DNA of 55,161 nt, taken from a virus. Taxonomy: Duplodnaviria; Caudoviricetes. The translations under genes and the position numbers were made by a program. This document shows, piece after piece, positions 13,091 through 55,161 of the stretch. The notes under the pieces are model-generated. The model was not told where the DNA came from and did not search any database. It saw only the letters and a list, made by a program, of their open reading frames with translations. The stretch is from positions 1 through 55,161 of IMG/VR virus record IMGVR_UViG_3300020042_006565; one strand, given 5' to 3'. Each line of letters opens with the position of its first letter. Positions within the stretch are counted from its first letter, which is position 1.

Positions 13091-13969
13091 TTACCAGTAC
13101 CAGATATCTAATCGACCATCACCACCCTTGCCGCCAGCACCGCCAGTAATACCGCCAGCACCGCCGCCACCACCACACCCATATACCCCATCACCTCCAC
13201 GGCCACCCGTGCCCACAGAGTTTCCTCCACCGCCCATACCGCCAGTGCCAGCCAAAAACGGCTCATACCATAAGCCACTCTGTCCTAAACCCCCACCAAC
13301 CGCACCCCCCAGTAGTGAAGCAGAAATATTATTTAGGCCCGTAAGTCCACCACCAGCGAAATTTGCGTTTGCGGCACTGCAACTACCGCCTGCGCCACCA
13401 CCACACCCTCTGCCCAATGATTGAAGCGTGAGTAGAGAGGCAGTCGCCCCGGCAGACCCACCCTGCCCTGCAATTCCAGTCGTCACTGTAAGAACTACTA
13501 AAAATACGTTTATCGCACCTGTGGCTCCTGCGGCGCCAGCCGATCCACCCGCAGTAGTTCCGAAGCCTCCTCCAGACCCTCCCGGCGCAGTTACAAAGGG
13601 TGAGGCGGTTGATGCTGAGTGATCCACATATATATTACTCGCAATACCCGCACCCCCGGCCACCCCAGTCGCGCCACCCGCTCCACCTCTTCCTATTGAT
13701 ACTGGAATAGACCCATTGAAAAATGACGCACGAAACAGTATTCGACCATCACCGCTTCCGCCGCCACCGCCGCCCCCAGCGCGAATAGTCGATGTGGCTC
13801 CGGTTGCACCACCTCCACCTCCACCTCCAGCACCTCGCAAGTGAAGATAAATCCATTGCGCCCAACGAGGGTATGTTATTTGAGTAATGTTGCCATTCGC
13901 TGCCGTGGCATTACCCAAGACAACGATATGATTTTTGTCAGACGAATAAAGGTTTGTTTGGAAATCCAT
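13091..13969 (-). CDS. glycine-rich tail protein, paralogue 2
   Basis: GAGGGGGGG, GGGGGSG and YGCGGGGG motifs. Start placed at ATG 13969, just after the upstream stop. Confidence 0.7.
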   Translation of the reverse strand: MDFQTNLYSSDKNHIVVLGNATAANGNITQITYPRWAQWIYLHLRGAGGGGGGGATGATSTIRAGGGGGGGSGDGRILFRASFFNGSIPVSIGRGGAGGATGVAGGAGIASNIYVDHSASTASPFVTAPGGSGGGFGTTAGGSAGAAGATGAINVFLVVLTVTTGIAGQGGSAGATASLLTLQSLGRGCGGGAGGSCSAANANFAGGGLTGLNNISASLLGGAVGGGLGQSGLWYEPFLAGTGGMGGGGNSVGTGGRGGDGVYGCGGGGGAGGITGGAGGKGGDGRLDIWYW

Positions 13970-14736
13970 ATTAAAAAAACCAGACATCTATCCGAGAATC
14001 ACCGCCATTACCACCCCGGCCACCAGTAGTCCCGCCGCCGCCACCGCCGCCACCGCAGCCATATGCGCCGTTGCCGCCGTTGCCGCCAGTTCCTGCTGCG
14101 TTACCGCCGCCGCCCAGACCGCCCGTACCTGACAAAGTTTCTTCGTGCCAAATGCCATTGCCACCAGCGCCACCTCCGACAGCCCCGCCTGCCATTGTTT
14201 GAATCAAAGTGCTGGATTGCGTAAATCCACCTCCAGTAAAATTTGCGTTTGCTGCGTTTACACTGCCCCCACCAGCCCCCGCGCATCCGTTACCCACAAC
14301 GGATGCTGTTATGTTTGCGGCATTTGCTCCAGCGGAACCTATAAGTCCGTTGCCGCCTCCCAAATTAACACCGCTCTGGAGGCCAAAATATGCGGAGGGT
14401 TGTCCTCCGGCGCCAAGAGTCCCTGCCGCGCCACCCGTGGTCGTTCCTGCGCCCCCCCCAGTCCCACTAGCAATACCGATAAAATTTGGATTACCAAATA
14501 CTCCCGTAATTTGTGCTATAGGGGCCACTTGAATAGTTGCGGAGGGAGTACCGCCGCCCCCTCCCGCTGTTCCAGCCGCTCCCCCAGTGCCGCCTCTCGG
14601 CAAAGTCGCACTAATGGAGCCTCTAAAAAAAGAGGCTGGTGTAAAAAAACTAAATATGCGCCCAGCAGCCCCACCACCGCCTCCAGCGCGAATAGTCGAT
14701 GTGGCTCCGGTTGCACCGCCTCCACCTCCACCTCCA
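13776..14736. repeat. 54-bp near-identical repeat shared by two paralogous genes (13776-13829 and 14683-14736, 1 mismatch)
   Basis: CCAGCGCGAATAGTCGATGTGGCTCCGGTTGCACC[A/G]CCTCCACCTCCACCTCCA. Confidence 0.85.
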
Positions 14737-14876
14737 CCGCCTATCAAACGCACAGCCACCATTGAAGCCCAACGAGGTATTGAAATCACACAAAGACCGC
14801 TGTTGGTGGTCGTCATCCCTGCGTCAACCCATACATGGTTTTTGTCTTGCGTAGATAAAAAACCCCAAAAATCCAT
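13971..14876 (-). CDS. glycine-rich tail protein, paralogue 1
   Basis: Same architecture as its neighbour (PRWA, GATGATSTIRAGGGGG, YGCGGGGG, C-terminal RIDVWFF). Confidence 0.7.
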   Translation of the reverse strand: MDFWGFLSTQDKNHVWVDAGMTTTNSGLCVISIPRWASMVAVRLIGGGGGGGGGATGATSTIRAGGGGGAAGRIFSFFTPASFFRGSISATLPRGGTGGAAGTAGGGGGTPSATIQVAPIAQITGVFGNPNFIGIASGTGGGAGTTTGGAAGTLGAGGQPSAYFGLQSGVNLGGGNGLIGSAGANAANITASVVGNGCAGAGGGSVNAANANFTGGGFTQSSTLIQTMAGGAVGGGAGGNGIWHEETLSGTGGLGGGGNAAGTGGNGGNGAYGCGGGGGGGGTTGGRGGNGGDSRIDVWFF

Positions 14877-15290
14877 TCAATAATCCCCACCCACCCCGAT
14901 TGCCGCCCAGCCAGCACTTGTTGGTGCGGCACTTAACAGCCAGATAATTTTGTAATTCGCCGGGATTGCAATATTAAAAGGTAAAACCAATTCTGGTAAT
15001 TGAGTAGACGTTGACAAAGTAGTGGCAGGGAGGGTTAATTCACCAAACAAGAAATTATTGGTTGCGGTTGTAGTTGCGCCCCCGTTATTTATCCAAAAAC
15101 GAGCAACAACGCCAACCGAATTAGTGCCAAGTGGCTTAACTTTGACATAGGTAACAAAACTACCTGATGCGCCAGCGGTAAAACAAGTTGCTACTGTTCC
15201 GCTGGCTCCATCGTAGGAGTTGGCCGTTGATGTTGTAAGGGTGGTTGATGCGACGTTAGGCGTCGTGGTGTATTGCGGGTCGAGTGCCAT
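14877..15290 (-). CDS. virion structural protein (137 aa)
   Basis: Abuts both neighbours. Thr/Ala-rich, ending in GGDY. Confidence 0.6.
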   Translation of the reverse strand: MALDPQYTTTPNVASTTLTTSTANSYDGASGTVATCFTAGASGSFVTYVKVKPLGTNSVGVVARFWINNGGATTTATNNFLFGELTLPATTLSTSTQLPELVLPFNIAIPANYKIIWLLSAAPTSAGWAAIGVGGDY

Positions 15291-15641
15291 TTAAGTAATC
15301 CCAAAGTTACCAAGTGAGCGCAGGATCACAGTTCCTGAGCGCGTGCCTTTAAGTGCCCTTGCGCTGGGTGTCAGAAACACGTTGACGGTGGTGGTGAACG
15401 TCACCCGTGAGCCTGTGCTGCTGTCGCTAATCTGTCCCCGGCTAAGAGTCGTGCCGTTCCAAACCGAGTCGCACACCTCCCAACTGCCGGGGGTTGTGCT
15501 CTCAATAGCGATGGTCACCACACTGCCCGTTGGCACTTCGGCAGCAAACGTGGCGTATCCGGTCACAGAACCAGAAGGCGTGACTGCGCCGCTGCCGGGG
15601 TTGGCGGCGGTCTGCGATACGCGGTCAGCGACGAAACTCAT
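15291..15641 (-). CDS. virion structural protein (116 aa)
   Basis: Motifs ADRV.QT, WEV, TLSRG and VF.T.SA resemble fibre N-terminal attachment domains. Confidence 0.6.
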   Translation of the reverse strand: MSFVADRVSQTAANPGSGAVTPSGSVTGYATFAAEVPTGSVVTIAIESTTPGSWEVCDSVWNGTTLSRGQISDSSTGSRVTFTTTVNVFLTPSARALKGTRSGTVILRSLGNFGIT

Positions 15642-15670
15642 CGGGACGTTCCAAAAGTTGTGAGTGTCAT

Positions 15671-16087
15671 TTACTGCGCCTCAATACCGACCTGACTCGC
15701 AGTGCCGGTTGTTGTGATGTTCAGTGTGTACGTTGTGAAAGTGCTGGTGACCGCCTGCCAACTGGAGGTACCAACGGGGGACCCGCCAGAATCTAGCAGT
15801 ACCACGCGGAGATTCTTTGTTGCGCCGGTTGATCTGCATCGAGTGTCTATGTTGTAGTTACCTGAAGCAAGTGGTAGTGACAAACCAAACTTGGCTGTGG
15901 TGACGGCCCCTGTTAGTCCTGGGCTGAAGATGTAATCAACGTCACTCGGAGTTACTTCATCAATGTCTGTGTACAGGGGTTGCGAGTCACTAGAAGTCCA
16001 TCCGCTAACAGAAATATCAGAGTTCGGCCTGCTTATCGTGACACTTAGAGTATCCGCGCCACCGAGTAAAAGGGGCGTGAACCACAT
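15671..16087 (-). CDS. hypothetical structural protein (138 aa)
   Basis: In-operon ORF, Thr/Ser-rich beta composition. Confidence 0.55.
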   Translation of the reverse strand: MWFTPLLLGGADTLSVTISRPNSDISVSGWTSSDSQPLYTDIDEVTPSDVDYIFSPGLTGAVTTAKFGLSLPLASGNYNIDTRCRSTGATKNLRVVLLDSGGSPVGTSSWQAVTSTFTTYTLNITTTGTASQVGIEAQ

Positions 16088-16450
16088 TTAGGCCACCTGT
16101 CTAATCGACCAACTGATTACGCGAGGGGTGCCTTGCAGATTCGTCAACGTGTACGTCCAGCCGTGCATCAGCAGCAGCGCGGATGTTGCGTAAACAGGAT
16201 CGGCAGTTTGTGCGCCGCTGATGATGGTGTCATCAATGACGCGCTGCGTACTTCCCGGCGATCCAGAAGAAACCACCTTTTCATATATCCTGAGTCGGTA
16301 CGATTCGGTGGTTGTCAAGTTGCTGAAGTCAATAAACGCTTGATATATGCCGTCCGTCGTCTGTGCAGACACTGTGGTGCTACCACTTGGTAAATCATAC
16401 TCAGTGGAGTTAATGGTGGCAGAGCCGCTAAATGCTTCGGTGATAGCCAT
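16088..16450 (-). CDS. hypothetical structural protein (120 aa)
   Basis: In-operon ORF with stop/start coupling. Confidence 0.55.
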   Translation of the reverse strand: MAITEAFSGSATINSTEYDLPSGSTTVSAQTTDGIYQAFIDFSNLTTTESYRLRIYEKVVSSGSPGSTQRVIDDTIISGAQTADPVYATSALLLMHGWTYTLTNLQGTPRVISWSIRQVA

Positions 16451-17433
16451 TAGTCTTGACTCCAGTAGGTGAAGCGGACGTATCCTGAAGAACCGTTTCC
16501 TCCGGCCCCATTACCGCCACCGCCACCGCCACCACCGCCAAAACCGGGAGCATTTCCACCTACCTGTGAAGTGCCCGAAGCGTTTCCGCCACCAGCCCCG
16601 CCGCATGACCAGTAACTTGGGCCTCCTACGCCGCCGCCGCCATAAGAGTTAGTTCCATCAGTCCCTCCTACTCCCGGAATCGCGCGTCCAGAGGTATTGG
16701 TACACCCCCATACCCCACGCCCTTGATAACCTCCGCCACCGCCTCCAGCGGTTGCCCCCGTTGTAGAGGCTGCACCACCTGAAGCGCCAGTCGCACCTAC
16801 AAATTTTACATGACCCATTATAAAATTCGTTGCAGTTACCTGTGGTGTATCAGAGAAAGCAGTACCAGTAGGTGGCGAGGCTGCGTTTGCTACCCCAAGA
16901 ATGCTGCCGCCACTAATACCAAAGTCAAAAGCACCTGCACCGTAATTAGTACCGGTGCCACTTGTTGTAGCAGTTGCGGCTCCTCCTACCCCTTGTCCGC
17001 CAGCAATGTTAAAAGTACCACTAGACCATGAGCCCGTGTAAGCATTGAACCCGGTATATGCGCCGCGCGTCAAACCTGCAATCGTAGTAAGACCACCAGA
17101 ACCATTATTTGAAGCGACTGCGCCACCAGAACCGCCTGCTCCAATGGTGATCGTTAACGATGTGTTTGGTATAACTACCGTTTGGCAGTTGGTAAAAGAC
17201 ACACCCGAACCGCCTCCGCCGCCTCCTGCGCGAGATGTAGTTAAGTTGTAGCCGCCACCGCCACCAGCACCTGCGCCACAAGCATCTATGAATATGGTCG
17301 CCACGCCCAGCGGCACAACAAACGTCCACGGGCCATTGACCGATGTCGCATCCGCCACCCCATCCGTCACAACCCCCGTGCCTCGAATGAACTCAACAAC
17401 GTGCTGCCTCAATACTGGCGATCCGTAACTCAT
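16450..17433 (-). CDS. glycine-rich tail protein, paralogue 3
   Basis: WTFVVPLGV..IFIDACGAGAGGGGG, LTITIGAGGSGG and GGNGSSGYVRFTYW form the typical Gly-rich fibre domain. Confidence 0.7.
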   Translation of the reverse strand: MSYGSPVLRQHVVEFIRGTGVVTDGVADATSVNGPWTFVVPLGVATIFIDACGAGAGGGGGYNLTTSRAGGGGGGSGVSFTNCQTVVIPNTSLTITIGAGGSGGAVASNNGSGGLTTIAGLTRGAYTGFNAYTGSWSSGTFNIAGGQGVGGAATATTSGTGTNYGAGAFDFGISGGSILGVANAASPPTGTAFSDTPQVTATNFIMGHVKFVGATGASGGAASTTGATAGGGGGGYQGRGVWGCTNTSGRAIPGVGGTDGTNSYGGGGVGGPSYWSCGGAGGGNASGTSQVGGNAPGFGGGGGGGGGNGAGGNGSSGYVRFTYWSQD

Positions 17434-22143: not shown

Positions 22144-22228
22144 GTAATAGTTCCTTTCCGTGCCGCCCTGGATATTCAGGGGTTGGGCTTGGTGGTCTTA
22201 CTTGTTTACATGTTAGCACGTGCAAACC

Positions 22229-26093: not shown

Positions 26094-26123
26094 GTATAGT
26101 GCTTACACGTATGCAAATGCAAC
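26094..26123 (-). promoter_or_regulatory. sigma70-like promoter TTGCAT-N18-TATACT with palindrome variant in the spacer
   Basis: Read on the minus strand upstream of the 26061 start. Operator variant GCTTACACGTATGC at 26101-26114. Confidence 0.5.
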
Positions 26124-27557
26124 GGACTTGATCTCTCTGCGGGTCGTGGCGTGCTTGGCCCCGAACGTCGCCCCATTGTCCGCGTGCAGGCAAATGTACT
26201 GGAGTGAGTCGGCGTAGTCAGACCACGGGTGGCTCTTCTCCGGCGTCTCGTCCTTGTCGCCCTTCGAGTTGATCTTGTAGCGGTACTTGCTACGCATGGC
26301 GATGATGAGCTGGGTGCAGCCTTCCTTGTCGAACAGGATCGCGGGTTTTCCGTCGATGGTCCTGGTCAGGTAGCTGTCCACTGCGGCCAGCCGGGCTGTG
26401 ATCGTGTTGGTCTTGGCCGGTTTAACGACGAACCCCTCGGCTTTGAAGATGTCAGCCACGGTGCGCTCGTCGGTCTGCGCTCTTTGGAACGCTGCCGGGT
26501 CGATGATGATGACTGACGGCTTGCCCGCGTACTTGGTCGCTATCAGCGGCTTGAGCATCTCCCGCACGAACCTCAGCGCACCCATGCTCTCGCCGGATAT
26601 GGAGTCATGCACGATCAACCGGCCCTGGTAGTCGAGCTGCGCGATGGTCGCTGTGGGGGTCAGGCCTGCATCCACCCCGATGATGATCGGTGCCGAGAGC
26701 ACGTTCAGCTTGCTCGTCGAGATGTGCGTGTCCTGCTTGAAGCTGCTGAACACCGGCTTGCCGGAGAGCGACTTGCCGAACTGCGCGTGGATGTACACGT
26801 CGATCCAGTCCTGCGTTTTCCCCTCTGCGAGGTCGTCGTAGTAAGACGCGGGCAGGAACTGCAGCCAATCTGCCTCTGTGGCCAGCCCGGATGGCTGGAA
26901 AAAGACAGCTACGTTCGACGGAGGATCTGTCAGCAGCGCCTCCCAGTGCGTGTCCATGTCCGGTGGGTTCGTCATCCCCCACAGGTGCTTGTTCGGACTG
27001 CCATCGTCGGTGACGCACCCGCCTATCGCGTGTCCTTTGTCGTCCTTGCCCCACTCGGGGCGTGGCGGCACGAGCATCTTGTCCGGGTATCTGCCCAGAC
27101 GGCCCTGGATCGCCTCGAAGATGTCCCTGTGGATCTCTCTGAACTCGTCCAGGATGGCAAAACTCGCCTGCAGCGACAGCAGCCGCCTCACGTCGTTCGA
27201 GTCATCCAGGCCCCGGAACAGAACTTCGCACTCGACGTCGTCGAACTTCAGCGTGAACTTCATGTCCACCTTGGCCATCGACCCTGCCTGGCCGTCCGGG
27301 AACCACTTCAAAAAGTCCGGGATGCTGGGGTCGGTGAGCATCTGCCGCGTGTTTCGTATCCACACCGCCCTCGATCTGCGGATACCGTCCTTGCACGCGG
27401 CCATCTGCTTGGCGTGGTACGCGATCTTCATGATCCCTGCGCTGGTCTTGGTGCTGCCGACCGGGCCGACGATCAGCGAGATGAACGAGTCCGAGCCCAG
27501 GAACCCCTGCACTGACTCTGGGGGGTTGAAGTCGATGCCGTGAGTGGTTTTGCTCAT
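26103..27557 (-). CDS. terL: terminase large subunit
   Basis: Walker A GPVGSTKT, Walker B AILDE, coupling motif MTNPP, RNase H-like nuclease motifs GVDAG and DYADSLQY. Confidence 0.9.
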   Translation of the reverse strand: MSKTTHGIDFNPPESVQGFLGSDSFISLIVGPVGSTKTSAGIMKIAYHAKQMAACKDGIRRSRAVWIRNTRQMLTDPSIPDFLKWFPDGQAGSMAKVDMKFTLKFDDVECEVLFRGLDDSNDVRRLLSLQASFAILDEFREIHRDIFEAIQGRLGRYPDKMLVPPRPEWGKDDKGHAIGGCVTDDGSPNKHLWGMTNPPDMDTHWEALLTDPPSNVAVFFQPSGLATEADWLQFLPASYYDDLAEGKTQDWIDVYIHAQFGKSLSGKPVFSSFKQDTHISTSKLNVLSAPIIIGVDAGLTPTATIAQLDYQGRLIVHDSISGESMGALRFVREMLKPLIATKYAGKPSVIIIDPAAFQRAQTDERTVADIFKAEGFVVKPAKTNTITARLAAVDSYLTRTIDGKPAILFDKEGCTQLIIAMRSKYRYKINSKGDKDETPEKSHPWSDYADSLQYICLHADNGATFGAKHATTRREIKSVAFAYV

Positions 27558-27910
27558 TCGCTGGTCGCTTCTGTGGCGGTTACTTCCGTCACTGCGCCCT
27601 CGATGACGTTCTGGTCTGCCTTGCGCTGCGTCATGTTGATGTTGACGCTGAAGGTCGGACCCCCTGCACCTGCTGACACGTTAGTTTGTTTGGGGATCGC
27701 GTCCGCGACCTTGGCCAAGAACTCCATGAACTGCACGCGAGTGGCCATCGACACTGCCGGGTCGCGCATGCGCATGTGCATCAAGTCGATATGCACTGCC
27801 AGGAGCTTCAAGTTGTAGTCCTTGAACGCCTTGGGATTGGCTACGAACTCCTCCAGCAGCGCTGGGGGCATCGCCAACTGTTTTGATACTGCGGGGTTGG
27901 TCTGGTCCAT
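27554..27910 (-). CDS. terS: putative terminase small subunit
   Basis: Overlaps the terL start (ATGA). Helical body plus a GGPTFSVNINM beta-strand tail. Confidence 0.55.
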   Translation of the reverse strand: MDQTNPAVSKQLAMPPALLEEFVANPKAFKDYNLKLLAVHIDLMHMRMRDPAVSMATRVQFMEFLAKVADAIPKQTNVSAGAGGPTFSVNINMTQRKADQNVIEGAVTEVTATEATSE

Positions 27911-27919
27911 GACCAGATA

Positions 27920-28150
27920 TTACATCAACGGTGTCGTAAATAGGGTTAAGTACGCATCGCGCTGATTACGCAGGACTATCGCTGCGTTTTGCTGTGGGGC
28001 GGTCAGGGGTAATTTGGTCGCCTGGAACAACAGCTGCACAGCGTGGGCTGTGAGCGGGTCCTTATTAATAGCAAAGATCTGCAGCCCTTCTGCTGCCAGG
28101 TCGTGCAGCTCTGCGAGCTGGGTGTTTTTTGGCTTGGGTGTCATAGCCAT
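27920..28150 (-). CDS. hypothetical protein (76 aa)
   Basis: First ORF of the leftward operon. No clear RBS. Confidence 0.4.
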   Translation of the reverse strand: MAMTPKPKNTQLAELHDLAAEGLQIFAINKDPLTAHAVQLLFQATKLPLTAPQQNAAIVLRNQRDAYLTLFTTPLM

Positions 28151-28233
28151 GAATGTAGGGGATTTTTTGGAAAAATTTTTGGGGGAGGGGTGCTTTTTGG
28201 GCGCGAAATGGGCTGGGTGTCATAGCCATGAAT
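28135..28233. repeat. 20-bp direct repeat TGGGTGTCATAGCCATGAAT (28135-28154, 28214-28233)
   Basis: Exact duplicate read directly from the sequence. Confidence 0.85.
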
Positions 28234-28339
28234 CGAAAAATTGGGCTTGAGATGTATGAACTACCCCCCTACCCCCACGCCGCCCGCCTGGTTGGTCCCA
28301 CCCCCCCACCCCGGCACCCCCCGAAAACACGGAAAACAC

Positions 28340-28910
28340 AGTCGCACCGTTTATGTAAGAACAGCGGCTGTCGTAACCCTGGTGTTCTTACTGACTTAGA
28401 TGCAAGCCGGTGCGCAACTTCCGCACCGCTACCCGAAAGGGAGAGAGCACTAGGTTACCCGTGAGGGGACTCCATCTATGGTGGAGACTAGGATTCGGGA
28501 TTGATGTTTAGGCGCAACTGTGCGGCTAACCCAGTTCCTGCATGAGTAACCCAGCGTTTGTTTAGCGCAGCGCTGGTGTAGGGGTGCAGGTTCGGCTGGG
28601 CGTGTAGCAGTGAGGTGGTTTGCAGCGCCGATAGTCAAGTCGAACCGCGTGTGAAGCGCGAAACCGAATCCTACTGGATCACAACCGTCCGGACGTGCGG
28701 GGCGCAAAGCTCTCGACAGCCCCCGGACGTGATAGGCGCGCATGGCGTGCCAACGATCACTTCACAAGCGCCTTATCAGGGGGGCGCGTAATACCCCTGC
28801 GGCTTGGCAAGCCACAAAACCCGCGAGTCGGCGCGGACAGTACCGACACAAAGTTTCAGCCAATGCCCACAGTCTATCGTGGGCATTACCGGGCGCTTTG
28901 ACCCGAAACC
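28340..28910 (+). ncRNA. candidate large structured RNA (~570 nt)
   Basis: At least 15 helices found by eye, including long-range 28489-28498/28664-28673, GNRA-capped hairpins and a 3' pseudoknot. No credible ORF. Confidence 0.7.
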
Positions 28911-28940
28911 CCCTTAATCATTCACTCAAGGAGCTACACC

Positions 28941-29471
28941 ATGTCCACCAATCAACAAGAACCCGTCGTGTTCACCATCGAAGACTTCAACAAGAGCATT
29001 GCGGTGCTCGTCAAGGGCCAAGCCAAGACTGCGAAGTCTATCGGCGCACTGCTGCTCCAGTGCCTCTACTTCTCTATCGTGGAGAAGGACGCTGGAGCGG
29101 CCAATGGGCTGATCGCCTGCCTGCGCAAGTCCACCAAGCAGGCCGGAATAATCGCGCTGCTGGAGACGCACGGCAACCTCGTGTGGCAGAAGTCCCTCAA
29201 GACCCCGCGCTTCGCTCACTTCGACGCTGACTGGGAGTGGACTCAGGAGTACGTGGACGGCATGCGCGAGGTCTGCGCTGACTGGGAGAGCTACAAGCCA
29301 GAGACTGAGAAGGAGACTGAGTTCGACGTCATCAAGGCGCTGGAGTCCCTCCAGAAGAAGGCAGTCTCTGCCAAGAGCAAGAGCCTCAACATCAAGGGCG
29401 AAGCTGCGCTGCAAGCGATCAGCTTGATCGTGGCCAAGTACAACGCGGCTGCTATCGACAAGGTTCTGTGA
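28941..29471 (+). CDS. early hypothetical protein (176 aa) between the structured RNA and the hammerhead
   Basis: AAGGAG RBS and strongly C/G-ending codons like the highly expressed phage genes. Confidence 0.85.
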   Translation: MSTNQQEPVVFTIEDFNKSIAVLVKGQAKTAKSIGALLLQCLYFSIVEKDAGAANGLIACLRKSTKQAGIIALLETHGNLVWQKSLKTPRFAHFDADWEWTQEYVDGMREVCADWESYKPETEKETEFDVIKALESLQKKAVSAKSKSLNIKGEAALQAISLIVAKYNAAAIDKVL

Positions 29472-29473
29472 CA

Positions 29474-29536
29474 CCTGCCCACTGATGAGGCCCCGTGGCA
29501 GGGGCCGAAACCCTGCGCTAGTTGGCAGGGTCTGGG
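29474..29536 (+). ncRNA. type I hammerhead ribozyme
   Basis: CCCA-CUGAUGA-GGCCCC(GUGGCA)GGGGCC-GAAA-CCCUGC(GCUAGUUG)GCAGGG-UC-UGGG. The complete core is present and predicted cleavage is after C29532. Confidence 0.93.
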
Positions 29537-29539
29537 AAG

Positions 29540-29985
29540 CTCTAATTAATATTAATTGTCGCCATGGCAACTTGCTTACACGTCAGCGAGCTGTCCTCTG
29601 GCGCTGTTCTTATTAGAGAGGGCTCTTTTTTGGGACCCATTTGTTCGATTGATAAGGATTCATCGCTATGGCTCTGCATGGGTCCCCATGCATCTACTTA
29701 TCTCTATATTAATCATATTAATATAATTAAAGAGAGAAAAGAGAGCCAGAAAGCTACGCTCTGTTGTCATGCGCATGAATCGCGGCGCGCTCGCTCCTCA
29801 GTTGTCATAGCGACAAGTTCGCACAAGCTTTTGCTCTCAGTGGGAAAAACGGCTCTAATATATTAATAAGAAAAAAGTCCTTGCATAGCCAGCCGTGCGC
29901 ATGCATAGCGACAAGCTCTTATTAGAGACCCCTCTTATTAATATGCCTCTAATAAGACCCCGCCCACCCCTAATAAGACCCGCAG
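29540..29985. other. AT-rich repeat-containing non-coding region, candidate replication origin/control region
   Basis: CTTATTAGAG at 29609 and 29918, inverted copies at 29947 and 29968 (1 mismatch), palindrome AATTAATATTAATT at 29544 and an AT tract at ~29700-29740. Confidence 0.5.
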
Positions 29986-30043
29986 CGCCCTCGCATCGAG
30001 CAAGCGCAGCACTGGTCAGCGCCCTTTTTCTCCCCCACAACTC

Positions 30044-30057
30044 GCTTACATGTAAGC
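30044..30057. promoter_or_regulatory. perfect palindromic operator GCTTACATGTAAGC
   Basis: Upstream of the small early gene array. Confidence 0.75.
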
Positions 30058-30101
30058 AAGTTGTTCGTTCGTCCCCCACTCACTTAATAAAGGACAGCAC
30101 C

Positions 30102-30269
30102 ATGAACCACCAAATTCCAGTCGCCAACATCGCAGATGAGATCGAGACAGTCCAAGACTTCTTCCTTCTTCTTAATAACCCGCACCTCCCGCCCCTGCAC
30201 TTGGCAGAGGAAGACAACCCAGGCGACCGGACGTTCATCCACACCCTCGAAGACCCGACCTCATATTAA
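30102..30269 (+). CDS. small early hypothetical protein
   Basis: AAAGGA RBS, ATG 30102 (MNHQIPV...). Confidence 0.55.
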   Translation: MNHQIPVANIADEIETVQDFFLLLNNPHLPPLHLAEEDNPGDRTFIHTLEDPTSY

Positions 30270-30282
30270 TAAGGAGCAGACC

Positions 30283-30459
30283 ATGCAGATCAAAGTAGTT
30301 TTCGAGTTCCCCGACGTCACCGACCCCACCAGCGCGGCAGCGTTCCACATCCTCTCCACGTTCGAGCGCGACTGCAACCGGCTGGTGTACCGGCAGTACA
30401 CCGCCAACGACACCAACTACGCGTACATCGAGCGCGACGACCCAACTGACGAGGAGTAA
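30283..30459 (+). CDS. small early hypothetical protein
   Basis: TAAGGAG RBS, ATG 30283 (MQIKVVF...). Confidence 0.65.
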   Translation: MQIKVVFEFPDVTDPTSAAAFHILSTFERDCNRLVYRQYTANDTNYAYIERDDPTDEE

Positions 30460-52315: not shown

Positions 52316-55161
52316 TCATTGCGCGAACCGACCTGCCCTATTCATATAGGCCTCGTTCTTGGTCATCAGCGGAACACCGCTGCCTGGAGCGCGATTCTTA
52401 CCTTCTCCGCGTACGTCCTTGCGCCACTGAACTTCCTGCTTGCCGGTGATCGGCTGCTCAGGGTGGTCCTCGTTGAACTCCTGGATCAGCTCGCGGACAT
52501 CGCCCATGTCACCGCTGCGAACGCCCGCCTTGTACGCCTTGCCGATACTGCCTTGGCGTTCCTTGTACGCAGCCTCGATGTTCTTGATCGCGTTGGTGCC
52601 TTCGTAGTACGCAGACTCTGCGGTAGGAGATACGCCCAGCGCCCGCAGCGTCACATCCCACGCATCCATCTCGGTGCCGGTCGGCACGTTCTTGCCATCC
52701 GTCAAACCTGCAGTGGAGTAGCGACCGGCTTTGACCACGTCAGCGACGAACTTCGGTGACAGCTTCTCGATACCCTTCGCCACATCGCCTTCGGACAGTC
52801 GTACGAATCCGTCGTAAAACTTGGCTGACATTCCTGCGGCTGGGCCGAGGGCACTGAGTACCAACTCGCCCACTTGCTCCTGGCCGGTGCGCTTATCGAA
52901 ACGAGCCATCGGGAACGGCGAGGCAATATCTCCGAGACCGATACGCTTGGACAGGTCCATGCCAAACATGGCAGGCACACCCTTGGCCAGAACATCGGAC
53001 AGTCCCTTGTCGCCCGACAAGTCATAGATCGCGTTGCGCAGTTTGGTCTCTGCATCACCTTCAGGATCATCCTCGTCGCCGAACAGGTTGGCAACGAACA
53101 ACGCGGTAGACATGAACGGCAAACCGAGCACACCTGCAGACATGCCGGAGGTGAGCGTGAAGTAGGTCAGAGCAGCGCGTGCCTCCTTGGCTTCCTTGCC
53201 CTCACCAAACGCTTTCTTGATGTTCGATCCGAACAGGTAGAGCATGCCCTGCTGGTATCTGCGGAACTGGAACACCAACTTGGCAAACGGAACCCCGCCG
53301 CCTTCTCGCATGACGCGAGCTGTGCCTTCAGAGCTGTAGTCGAACTGCGTGTTGAGCGTGGTGTCGTACGCATACTTGACCGCGTCGTCGTAGTTCATAC
53401 CGTCTTTGCGAGCCAGCCGGAAAGATGCCAGCGCAGCCGACGTGCGGTTGAGCAGCTCGATCTGCTGTGTGGTCCAACCCATGTACCGGTTGACTTGCGA
53501 GAGCAATCGGCTGGAGTCCTGCGCGAACATGCCCAGCTCAAGCTGTGCGCCATCGGCAAGAATCCCCTTGGTCATCAGCTCACGAATCGCCTTGCGGTCC
53601 TCGGTCGCAGCCAGCGTGCCCTCGCTGATGCCGGACCATGCATCGAACTGGCCGTTCTTCCAACGAGCGTCTTTCAAGATCATCAGCGCATCTCGTGAGG
53701 CTGCACTGAGTGCCTTGGTTGCCTTGGCGATCCCGAACTTGCCAGCCATCATGGGCAGCGTCACCAACCACGGCTGGGTGCTGTTGATGAGCATGAACGA
53801 AGGCGACACGCCGAGGTGGTAGACCCAAGACAGCGAAGACATCAGATCTTGCACAGGGGTCTGCTTGTACTGCATGTCCAGCGCCATGCGCTGTTCCATC
53901 TCGCGGTGGATGTGCTGCAGATCTGACTTGCCCTTGGTCTCGCGCTTCATGGCGAACATCGTGTCGGCCATCTCGCTGGCGTACATCAACCGTGACGTGA
54001 AGAACGCGCCCTGCTGCCCTGCCGCAGCGAACGCACGCAGCATGTCTGGACTCGCGCCCTCGATGCCCTTGCGGTGTGCTTCTCTGCGAAGAGCGTGCAT
54101 CTCTGGCAGAGACTGCAGAAAGATCGAGCTGATTGACTCGTTGAGTTTTCCAGCTGTGCCCTTGTCGAACTGGCTGTCGATAACCTGCGTGATGTTGTCC
54201 AGCGTGTCTTGCGACAGCGTGCGCATGCCGTCGATGTGCTGGTCAGTCAGGTCCTGGCGAGTCTGCAGACCCTTGGCCTTGAGAGCGCGTTCCGCTGCGT
54301 TGGCTTGGCCCTTGGTCTCGTGAGCGGACACCGAATACTGCGTGCCGTCTTTCTTCATCGCGTCGAGCTGCTTCTCCAACGCGGTGCGTTCTGAACCCGT
54401 GGCGTCATCCATGCGCTGGCGCAGGTCGATCAGGGCCTGAGACTCCCCGATAGCAAGGTAGCTGCCGAAACGCATCAGCGGGAAGTAAGGCCCCTTGATC
54501 TGCTTGAGCTGCTTGCTGTACTCGGCCTTCGAGGTTTCTTGCTCTTTGGCCAGCTTGGCCACAGCGTCTGTGTCCCCACGTTCCTGAGCTGCTTCGATGC
54601 GCTTGTTGTACGTGTAGTCCACGAGCTGGTTGTACGCAGCCTCGCGTTTCTTCCACGCATCGTCGAGCGACTTCTTGGCTTCTTGGTAGACCTTCTTGGC
54701 CTCGGGAGTCATCGCGTTGTACTTGGCAGCGAGCGCCGCGTGCTCTGCTTGCTGCTCTGGCTTCAGGTGCGCGTTCTCTGGCTCACCGAAGGCGCGGTCC
54801 GGGTGGATCTCTTTGAGCGTGGCACGCAGCATGACTTCGCTGAGCTGGGCCTTGATCGCGTTGGCCAGCTTGTCCCAGCGAACCGAGATGTCGTGGAACT
54901 CCATCGCCTGCTTGGTGCGCTCAACCGTCAGCGACTGCTGCAGACCGACGTACTTCTTCAGCGAGTCAATCTTCTTGCCAAACTGCTCTGCCAGCTGCGA
55001 GTTGTTGAGGAACCTGGGCGAGTTCTTCTGGAGGAAGTCGGTCACCGTCGCAAAGCTGTCTGCGACCTTCGGGTTCATGTTGCCCCGCAGCCGCTCCGCA
55101 GTGTTGCGGTACAGCGTGTTGGCGTTGTTGGCAGTTGCAGTAGAGCTGCCGATACCAAACT
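52316..55161 (-). CDS. C-terminal part of a giant virion ejection/polyvalent protein with PLxRFG motif
   Basis: PYFPLMRFG, N.TQ and QF.Y...FQFRRY motifs. The frame stays open from the track start (55078) to the right end of the window. Confidence 0.8.
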   Translation of the reverse strand, partial: FGIGSSTATANNANTLYRNTAERLRGNMNPKVADSFATVTDFLQKNSPRFLNNSQLAEQFGKKIDSLKKYVGLQQSLTVERTKQAMEFHDISVRWDKLANAIKAQLSEVMLRATLKEIHPDRAFGEPENAHLKPEQQAEHAALAAKYNAMTPEAKKVYQEAKKSLDDAWKKREAAYNQLVDYTYNKRIEAAQERGDTDAVAKLAKEQETSKAEYSKQLKQIKGPYFPLMRFGSYLAIGESQALIDLRQRMDDATGSERTALEKQLDAMKKDGTQYSVSAHETKGQANAAERALKAKGLQTRQDLTDQHIDGMRTLSQDTLDNITQVIDSQFDKGTAGKLNESISSIFLQSLPEMHALRREAHRKGIEGASPDMLRAFAAAGQQGAFFTSRLMYASEMADTMFAMKRETKGKSDLQHIHREMEQRMALDMQYKQTPVQDLMSSLSWVYHLGVSPSFMLINSTQPWLVTLPMMAGKFGIAKATKALSAASRDALMILKDARWKNGQFDAWSGISEGTLAATEDRKAIRELMTKGILADGAQLELGMFAQDSSRLLSQVNRYMGWTTQQIELLNRTSAALASFRLARKDGMNYDDAVKYAYDTTLNTQFDYSSEGTARVMREGGGVPFAKLVFQFRRYQQGMLYLFGSNIKKAFGEGKEAKEARAALTYFTLTSGMSAGVLGLPFMSTALFVANLFGDEDDPEGDAETKLRNAIYDLSGDKGLSDVLAKGVPAMFGMDLSKRIGLGDIASPFPMARFDKRTGQEQVGELVLSALGPAAGMSAKFYDGFVRLSEGDVAKGIEKLSPKFVADVVKAGRYSTAGLTDGKNVPTGTEMDAWDVTLRALGVSPTAESAYYEGTNAIKNIEAAYKERQGSIGKAYKAGVRSGDMGDVRELIQEFNEDHPEQPITGKQEVQWRKDVRGEGKNRAPGSGVPLMTKNEAYMNRAGRFAQ

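Follow-up and report, generated by a model that had tools for sequence, protein, structure and literature searches.

A structured leader, a first rightward gene and a predicted hammerhead ribozyme in the divergent control region of an uncultured tailed phage

The window analysed in this study is the whole of the IMG/VR virus record IMGVR_UViG_3300020042_006565 (Duplodnaviria; Caudoviricetes), a tailed-phage genome of 55,161 bp that is classed as linear, is estimated to be 93% complete and has a guanine-cytosine (GC) content of 58.6%. At positions 28340–29536, a long structured non-coding leader, an open reading frame (ORF) for a 176-aa protein and a type I hammerhead ribozyme motif follow one another on the + strand. 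We favour, with a probability of roughly 0.55, the reading that this unit is the first rightward messenger RNA (mRNA) of the phage, that its 3′ end is made by self-cleavage and that its leader acts in cis. Under this reading, leader, ORF and hammerhead would be carried on one transcript and the hammerhead would cut after C29532, as expected from established hammerhead chemistry; the leader–ORF mRNA would then end in stems II and III with a 2′,3′-cyclic phosphate. The hairpins of these two stems would shield the mRNA's 3′ end, and the cut would uncouple the first-gene mRNA from read-through into an AT-rich, operator-flanked region. The hammerhead would thereby take the place of the stable hairpin or intrinsic terminator that is found at the same spot in related phages. 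The leader would be a lineage-specific module with a conserved C-rich, promoter-proximal element on its upstream side and the first gene on its downstream side, and would most likely work in cis on the stability, timing or translation of that gene.

The unit covers the first rightward gene and is placed in the divergent control region, with the terminase/structural arm of the genome on one side and the replication arm on the other. Structural genes occupy the − strand at 718–28150, with the large terminase at 26103–27557, and replication genes (ATPase, HNH endonuclease, DNA polymerase, helicase and primase) run on the + strand from 28941; the position of the unit suggests that it is expressed early. 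An earlier sequence-only reading of the same DNA had described a highly paired non-coding region of about 570 nt, a well-translated ORF, a complete hammerhead a few nt after the stop codon and about 560 nt of non-coding DNA before the next genes, and most of this description is borne out. The ORF has a GC content at third codon positions (GC3) of 0.82 and an AAGGAG motif 7 nt before its ATG, the hammerhead meets the consensus and begins 6 nt past the stop codon, and 566 nt of non-coding, AT-rich DNA separate the unit from the next ORF with a ribosome-binding site, at 30103. The strong pairing of the non-coding region was likewise confirmed, but its length is 601 nt. The features of the unit and of its flanks are listed in Table 1.

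Table 1. Positions of the predicted and observed features in and around the unit, numbered along the window.
Feature	Position	Strand	Remarks
Two C-rich, G-poor tracts	28255..28330 (28255-28289, 28296-28330)	+	From composition scans
Conserved motif ending in AAACACAGUCGC	28323..28348	+	5′ edge of leader; common to the window, L023 and L026
Non-coding, highly paired leader	28340..28940	+	601 nt; from fold z-score and lack of coding signal
Hairpin E1 (predicted)	28735..28751	+	6 bp, loop CAUGG; forms in the window and L001
H-type pseudoknot 1 (predicted)	28768..28799	+	Stem 1 5 bp, stem 2 6 bp, third loop GUAAUA
H-type pseudoknot 2 (predicted)	28821..28847	+	Stems of 5 + 5 bp, third loop ACAGUA
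Hairpin E5 (predicted)	28864..28885	+	7 bp; two C-G pairs are U-G in L001
Ribosome-binding site AAGGAG	28928..28933	+	7 nt before ATG; same motif precedes the L001 ORF
176-aa ORF	28941..29471	+	GC3 0.82; AAGGAG 7 nt before ATG
Type I hammerhead ribozyme (predicted)	29478..29536	+	Predicted cut after C29532
27-nt inverted-repeat arm (pair I1)	29568..29594		89% complementary to 30037-30063; left boundary of repeat-rich region
28-bp near-perfect palindrome	30037..30064		Just upstream of the ORF at 30103

The hammerhead motif is very probably genuine. The core strands CUGAUGA (29482–29488), GAAA (29507–29510) and GUC (ending at C29532) are joined in type I order by a stem I of 4 bp, which is open, a stem II of 6 bp and a stem III of 7 bp that begins with an A-U pair. 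All core positions agree with the consensus, and the closing pairs G10.1–C11.1, A15.1–U16.1 and U1.1–A2.1 are standard. A descriptor scan of both strands gave one match in the window, and also one match in 200 Markov-1 simulated windows. The alignment of the window copy to the Rfam model RF03152 comprised the core, stem II, stem III and the 3′ strand of stem I, and no other ribozyme family was found by Rfam in 28150–30100 at E ≤ 10. Contigs from four DNA runs were mapped to 28200–29700; those that are 95–99% identical to the window cover parts of the leader, ORF and hammerhead, and these environmental variants keep the hammerhead, the sole listed change being an inserted C beside stem I. Furthermore, a 380-nt contig of higher depth (run X7, record 16) shares only 29481–29511 with the window, with one mismatch and within unrelated flanks; since these 31 nt correspond to the hammerhead core and stem II, the match seems to reflect a ribozyme module in another genome. 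Two of the runs carry about 80 other letters directly after the hammerhead, at 29541/29545, and thus have a variable junction at the 3′ edge of the ribozyme. Viroid-like and Obelisk-like circular RNAs are bounded by two self-cleavage sites or by a unit-length repeat, and a circular RNA of this kind was set aside because only one hammerhead is present in the window on both strands.

Related loci indicate what can follow the first gene at this boundary. The only close IMG/VR homologues of the ORF are in L001 and L002 (46% identity), which were retrieved by an alignment-based scan, a single-protein scan having found none, and which are identical to each other in this region. They share the gene order of the window: after the large terminase come a small ORF on the − strand, a gap of about 780 nt, the ORF itself and a repeat-rich gap. 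Among species genomes (64 pattern hits) and Joint Genome Institute (JGI) metagenomes (590 pattern hits), none encodes a relative. Forty-five further loci were gathered via the large terminase, by which L023 (86% identity) and L026 (74%) are the closest phages; the best terminase match among named phages, Pseudomonas phage Rollin, was discarded as its gene layout differs. With a profile of the ORF family, distant members were recognised in L042, L032, L033 and L036, in each case as the first divergent gene, and L052 was tied to them by BLASTP. The L042 protein in turn brought in 17 loci, L070–L086, together with its own contig again as L069 (L069–L086 are hereafter the sister clade). The ORF-family loci counted below number 24: the window, L001, L002, L069, 16 of L070–L086 (L076, which is cut off, was left out), L032, L033, L036 and L052.

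A hammerhead scan of all three topologies was applied to the window and to every related locus then collected, and yielded three predicted hammerheads when duplicate contig copies were not counted, in the window, L042/L069 and L040. A hammerhead follows the ORF in two of the 24 ORF-family loci, the window and L042/L069. The L042/L069 copy is of type I, with stems of 6, 4 and 6 bp; the stop codon of the ORF lies within its stem II loop, and the ATG of the next gene lies 26 nt past the cut. The L040 copy is a type II hammerhead at 1199–1142 on the − strand, between two ORFs of the early strand and about 30 nt before the next start codon. In 16 sister-clade loci, the ORF is followed by a GC-rich hairpin that lacks a U-run, and in L001 and L002 by two hairpins. 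A hairpin with a U-run follows the ORF-family gene in L032, L036 and L052 and also the unrelated first ORFs of L026, L035 and L058/L062; the 3′ end in L033 is covered by the negative hammerhead scan alone. Because a hairpin or terminator stands at the same spot in these relatives, a defined RNA end or a stable hairpin after the first gene appears to be the conserved trait, and the predicted hammerhead is one sporadic means of providing it. The L042 hammerhead and the terminator-like hairpins of relatives at the same place also make it reasonable to propose, as the sequence-only reading did, a discrete leader–ORF RNA whose 3′ end lies just after the ORF.

The leader is a non-coding region for which the structural evidence from the window's own sequence is moderate. 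No ORF with a coding-like GC3 occurs in it, and a hidden protein gene was rejected since six-frame protein comparison with the homologous stretch of L001 gave a best E of 0.083, as against 3.6e-40 for the ORF as positive control. On the + strand the leader folds with −239.4 kcal/mol (z = −4.24, 0 of 20 shuffles as stable), on the − strand with z = −1.31 (3 of 20 shuffles as stable), and the ORF as folding control with z = −0.79 (20 of 100). Only the 3′ third of the leader is aligned with L001 by MAFFT, which misaligns the pseudoknot strands (alignment A5); the helices were thus checked sequence by sequence. Six helices with a total of 34 pairs are able to form in both sequences, and across these pairs there are four compensatory changes, three one-sided changes and no disruptive change. 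Five of the six helices were verified by script, and stem 1 of pseudoknot 1 in L001 was read by eye.

Two predicted H-type pseudoknots stand in tandem, each with an A-rich third loop of 5–7 nt. Every pair of pseudoknot 1 is possible in the window and in L001 and is identical between them, and strain variants add bases in its loops only; stem 2 of pseudoknot 2 carries two of the compensatory changes. Hairpin E1 shows two changes on both sides and one on one side, and a GCGCAUGGCG motif resembling it occurs in the leaders of L035 and L036. In hairpin E5, the changes from C-G to U-G are compatible with the + strand only. Furthermore, all 10 variant sites listed for 28725–28940 in the environmental contigs fall, by our own placing, in predicted unpaired linkers; about 40% of the stretch is paired, so that the avoidance of stems is suggestive at roughly 0.6^10, a figure that is an estimate and not a formal test. 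An Rfam search of 28150–30100 gave no match to the leader at E ≤ 10, a search that covers GOLLD, ROOL, HEARO, OLE and the riboswitches. An 18-nt degenerate pattern of the leader retrieved 19 stretches from IMG/VR, among which the only relatives are the two from the L001 and L002 contigs.

Beyond L001 and L002, the leader changes from clade to clade. Compared with the 45 terminase-related loci, the window leader was matched by blastn at its 5′ edge only, in L023 and L026, and by nhmmer nowhere. The conserved motif at this edge possibly lies near the RNA start; past it, L023 and L026 carry a different non-coding sequence of 530–640 nt and an unrelated first ORF. Their leaders are as unusually stable as that of the window (z = −5.45 in L026, also from 20 shuffles, and −4.45 in L023), as is that of L078 in the sister clade (z = −4.39), and very stable leaders were thus found in four of five clade examples. 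By contrast, the first ORF in L035 and L040 begins within roughly 100 nt of the C-rich element. A leader of about 300–700 nt precedes the ORF-family gene in every locus inspected, namely the window, L001/L002, 15 sister-clade loci, L032, L036 and L052. Since the leader sequence is clade-specific and long leaders also precede unrelated ORFs, the long leader is best described as a lineage-specific module at a fixed position that is untied to the ORF family. The sequence-only reading had joined both flanks to the ORF: in homologues the long upstream leader is kept and the downstream hammerhead is not. As a system, the three-part layout is not conserved, with a hammerhead in only 2 of the 24 ORF-family loci; equally long and stable leaders stand before unrelated ORFs in L023 and L026, and the leaders in L035 and L040 are short.

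The sister clade provides a well-supported case, from comparative analysis, of a new structured RNA at the same position. The clade has a GC content of about 40%, and 15 of its leaders (about 470 nt, at about 1960–2500 in L069–L086; alignments A3 and A4) align well. RNAalifold predicted 141 pairs in alignment A3 of 15 sequences, and 54 of these pairs have changes on both sides. In A3, 89.3% of cells can pair, compared with 34–41% when the partners are slid, and none of 500 shuffles reached the observed values. The consensus energy is −179 kcal/mol in the forward direction and −151 kcal/mol for the reverse complement, and the G-U pairs fit the + strand. The leader has an invariant hairpin loop and ends, about 70 nt before the ATG, in a hairpin with a U-run; pairing of the start-codon region with an invariant stretch of 10 nt is conceivable, through pairs that are themselves invariant and have no covariation support. 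This RNA matches no Rfam family; none of 19 related loci reached an Rfam gathering score, and L001/L002 gave no match at E ≤ 1. An upstream covarying RNA, which the sequence-only reading had proposed to look for beside homologues of the protein, is found in part: the 3′ third is homologous in L001/L002 and the sister-clade leader covaries, but the leaders of the clades are not detectably homologous to one another.

The 176-aa protein is predicted to be a homodimer and belongs to a widespread phage family (239 representative clusters at E ≤ 0.001). Residues 10–167 match positions 19–177 of the 190 in phrog_1448, a profile of unknown function, with E 4e-8. Pfam gave nothing above threshold (best DUF7018, E 0.021, under its cut-off), and a PDB profile search gave no match below E 0.18; neither search found a known RNA-binding domain. 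Seventeen metagenome homologues have 37–67% identity, and BFVD contains 19 viral structure matches at E ≤ 0.001, the named ones being uncharacterised proteins of cultured podophages from Pseudomonas, Ralstonia, Caulobacter, Rhizobium and other hosts. The homologue of an Acinetobacter Friunavirus ranks third among the annotated genes and has about 490 nt free of annotation upstream. The AlphaFold model has a predicted local distance difference test (pLDDT) score of 85 and a predicted template modelling (pTM) score of 0.60. The homodimer prediction scored 0.81, compared with 0.01 for the best of three controls, and of the proteins solved as one-chain pairs, 20 of 30 attained this mark, as did 1 of 23 solved as single chains, counts that hold only roughly here, with an alignment of our own. 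The homodimer runs share at least 99% of contacts, with a partner pLDDT of at least 86. In the predicted interface, the invariant residues R62, S64, T65 and K66 form an R-x-S-T-K patch at the dimer axis. Foldseek against the PDB returned MarR-type winged-helix chains as best matches, weakly (E 0.15–1, template modelling (TM) score 0.22–0.30), and a structure search of the Atlas gave the same weak winged-helix lead (TM 0.26–0.33). The recognition helices of MarR-type proteins do not occupy the place of the invariant dimer-interface motif, and nucleic-acid binding by the modelled protein is regarded as a lead only. A DNA-mimic anti-restriction protein of the Ocr or ArdA kind was rejected because the protein is not acidic (about 22 acidic and about 22 basic residues by hand count).

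Conserved or repetitive DNA elements border the unit on both sides. Upstream, the C-rich blocks take the form CCCCC..ACCCCCAC, then GTCCCACCCCCC, and homologous blocks are found in L023, L026, L001 and the 40%-GC sister clade (L069–L086), as well as in L032, L035 and L040; by this comparison they form a conserved element where the rightward unit begins. Downstream, 29540–30100 is AT-rich and full of short repeats. The palindrome near its right end is a likely candidate operator, and its 10-nt half-site CTTGCTTACA occurs eight times in the window as compared with 2.76 expected (0 of 100 shuffles reach 8). Besides the inverted-repeat arm and the palindrome itself, half-sites lie at 22201, 37672, 37710, 46048 and 47697, most copies being intergenic on the ORF map, and they are likely, from their sequence and placing, to be binding sites of a phage regulator. 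The whole of 29540–30100 thus looks like an operator/promoter region for the next unit; if so, leader, ORF and hammerhead would form a separate expression unit.

Several results weigh against a self-cleaved first mRNA with a cis-acting leader. Transcript ends, co-transcription and cleavage are all inferred from sequence, the cis role of the leader is a guess, and the scan of 27900–30300 found 0 sigma-70-like promoter sites with 1.1 expected. For the ribozyme, the window copy scored 21.8 bits with Hammerhead_3 (RF00008; gathering cut-off 48.5) and 19.9 bits with RAGATH-1-hammerhead (RF03152; cut-off 56.3), the latter over model positions 27–76 of 77. The L069 copy aligns with RF03152 at full length (positions 1–77) and scored 20.8 bits against the cut-off of 56.3, and the L040 copy scored 26.9 bits with Hammerhead_II against 37. 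Stem I of the window copy has just four continuous pairs, followed by a G-A mismatch and two possible pairs; its stem II loop could pair, as judged by eye, with bases that overlap stem I, and no tertiary contact between stems I and II, of the kind required for rapid cleavage at low Mg2+, could be assigned. In L001/L002, the closest homologues, no hammerhead follows the ORF and no Rfam ribozyme was found at E ≤ 1. For the leader, the z-scores of the window and L026 are based on just 20 shuffles each, and the stability of the L001 leader is unremarkable (z = −1.41, equalled by 2 of 20 shuffles). The global window–L001 consensus fold did not surpass column shuffles of the alignment (z = −1.4), and at least as many compensatory pairs were present in 53 of the 60 shuffles. 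No terminator-like site was found on the + strand of 28340–28940, nor a helix sequestering the start codon in the window leader, the region of the ribosome-binding site being not strongly paired in the ensemble. A riboswitch-like transcription attenuator would carry one of these two elements between its sensing domain and the ORF; in the sister clade both can be drawn, through pairs that do not covary. Finally, R1, a covariance model of the sister-clade central domain that holds only 18 base pairs and is thus mostly a sequence model, found nothing in the window or 23 other loci and matched only L042 (E 1.6e-23); the covariation of the sister clade is accordingly evidence by analogy and does not bear directly on the sequence of the window.

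The alternative that survives best, which we nevertheless consider unlikely, is that the leader is an independent non-coding RNA (ncRNA), for instance a decoy or sponge directed at a host factor or at a defence system, or a processive antiterminator, and that the ORF merely lies downstream. This would suit a modular leader that precedes different first ORFs in L023 and L026, is reduced to a short stretch in L035 and L040 and is very stable in most clade examples. In the sister clade, an RNA could end at the hairpin and U-run before the ATG, an element that could equally be an attenuator. The window leader, however, has no terminator-like site before the ORF, no promoter-like site was found between the two in the scan of 27900–30300, and no ncRNA class in Rfam was matched. 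Quite unlikely in our estimation is a broader proposal for podophages of freshwater and wastewater, in which a new class of large, fast-evolving structured RNA (450–650 nt, with tandem pseudoknots) would open the rightward programme behind the C-rich element, act in trans against a host function, possibly with the dimeric first-gene protein, and be released by ribozymes or hairpins.

It is improbable, furthermore, that leader and protein form a ribonucleoprotein (RNP) that works in trans to take over the host, counter its defences or control lysogeny, with the hammerhead releasing the RNA. The constant presence of a long leader before ORF-family genes, the invariant basic R-x-S-T-K patch in the predicted dimer interface and the weak fold resemblance to winged-helix nucleic-acid binders would agree with such a complex. 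Yet the proteins are homologous while the leaders of their clades share no detectable sequence or model match, equally long and stable leaders stand before unrelated ORFs, the hammerhead is rare among the ORF-family loci, a known RNA-binding domain was not found, and the downstream 28-bp palindromes and repeat arrays are equally good targets for the protein as DNA partners. The RNA–protein partnership put forward by the sequence-only reading is neither supported nor excluded.

Little credence is likewise given to the view that the 600 bp act mainly as DNA, as an early promoter array, an origin or a packaging or entry signal, with folding incidental to high GC. In T7-type phages, the first early gene is preceded by a long promoter region that is largely non-coding. 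In agreement with a DNA role, the stretch lies in the divergent control region beside the small and large terminase genes, its immediate upstream flank contains an A5T5 palindrome, a 25-nt direct repeat and the conserved C-rich/G-rich tract, annotation is sparse before the first genes of the Friunavirus record, and the global structure test with L001 was not significant. Stability is nonetheless specific to one strand (z = −4.24 vs −1.31), the pseudoknots and hairpins show compensatory changes with G-U pairs that fit one strand only, strain variants avoid stems, the positional counterpart in the sister clade covaries strongly, and no promoter-like sites were found. Least of all, an inactive or chance hammerhead motif with an ordinary terminator setting the 3′ end is very improbable: the low Rfam scores, the short stem I, a weak hairpin with a U-run near 29617–29635 (seen by eye) and a minimum free energy (MFE) fold of 29465–29545 alone that differs from the hammerhead fold (z = −1.39) would fit it, but core and closing pairs are complete, the chance expectation is about 1 in 200 windows, two more hammerheads occupy equivalent early-operon positions in related phages, environmental variants keep the motif and its 31-nt core and stem II recur in an unrelated contig.

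The favoured reading, a first mRNA trimmed by its own ribozyme, has a counterpart in phage T7. In T7, RNase III cuts between the early genes and leaves a hairpin at the 3′ end of each early mRNA. As in the window, a long non-coding stretch precedes the first early gene, and the ORF family is present in the early region of T7-like phages. Unlike in T7, the RNA of the window would cut itself instead of being cut by a host enzyme, and the leader is far more structured, its sister-clade counterpart being covarying.

For the ribozyme, the nearest precedent is the hammerheads of prophages, which flank single genes and for which a role in dividing long phage transcripts into mRNAs of one gene each was proposed (Perreault et al., 2011; PMC3088659). 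Those hammerheads resemble the present one in that a consensus hammerhead occupies a phage intergenic site adjoining a single gene, the genes beside it differ from case to case and the ribozyme is patchily distributed. In that report they often form clusters on both sides of a gene, whereas here a single ribozyme stands 3′ of the first rightward gene, at a spot taken in relatives by a terminator or hairpin. The present virus, moreover, in contrast to the prophages described there, is an uncultured, apparently non-integrating podophage-like virus, with no relative in 185,579 species genomes. Within the hammerhead clan (CL00010), the window copy differs from RF03152 in having no match to the first 26 model positions. 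The statement that no described system has this layout is thus too strong for the ribozyme, whose use is of a kind already proposed for phages (PMC3088659). The leader looks like part of an undescribed, fast-evolving set of RNAs.

The leader shares with GOLLD and ROOL, as presented in a 2024 study (10.1101/2024.12.08.627333), the character of a phage-encoded ncRNA of about 500–600 nt with many helices. It differs from those RNAs, as characterised there, in lying directly upstream of a protein gene and probably within the same RNA, in having no Rfam match at E ≤ 10 and in a sequence that is clade-specific and not a widely conserved class. Together, the leaders make up a set of large structured phage RNAs that has not been described before and that opens the replication-side arm; the sister-clade RNA, with its 54 covarying pairs, is the clearest case. 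The role of bacterial self-cleaving ribozymes is still called largely elusive in a further report (PMC6765202). In the present phage group, one and the same gene boundary is occupied by a hammerhead in some relatives and by a plain GC-rich hairpin or an intrinsic terminator in others, a natural comparison that bears on the self-cleaving ribozyme as a host-independent maker and protector of mRNA 3′ ends.

Several minor observations concern the flanks of the unit and the remainder of the genome. As RNA, the C-rich blocks resemble a Rho-loading site, and the opposite strand carries four or more G-runs. A 25-nt direct repeat (28130–28154 and 28209–28233; 92% identical, 79 nt apart) copies the beginning of the first leftward gene, start codon included, and the A5T5 palindrome, also present in L023, lies between the two copies. 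Dense TTAATA and CTAATAAGA-type short repeats fill 29540–29985 in an otherwise 59%-GC genome; at the same place L001 has other repeats, CAACTGTCAA and TCAAGAGA, and L026 shares a ATTAATCATATTAAT motif. A DNA search of 28150–29700 against 50,697 phage records gave no match, no Rfam 15 model reached its gathering score anywhere in the window, and a scan of the window for transfer RNA (tRNA) and transfer-messenger RNA (tmRNA) genes found none. On the − strand, several genes in 13091–17433 have a GC3 of 0.38–0.42, compared with 0.6–0.85 elsewhere, and this region has an atypical composition with many C-rich tracts on the + strand; it may represent a tail module that was acquired or is rich in repeats. 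A 920-aa ORF at the record's edge (52316–55078, − strand) has matches solely to the C-terminal portions of very large phage proteins, among them a DarB-like antirestriction family (E 3.7e-65).

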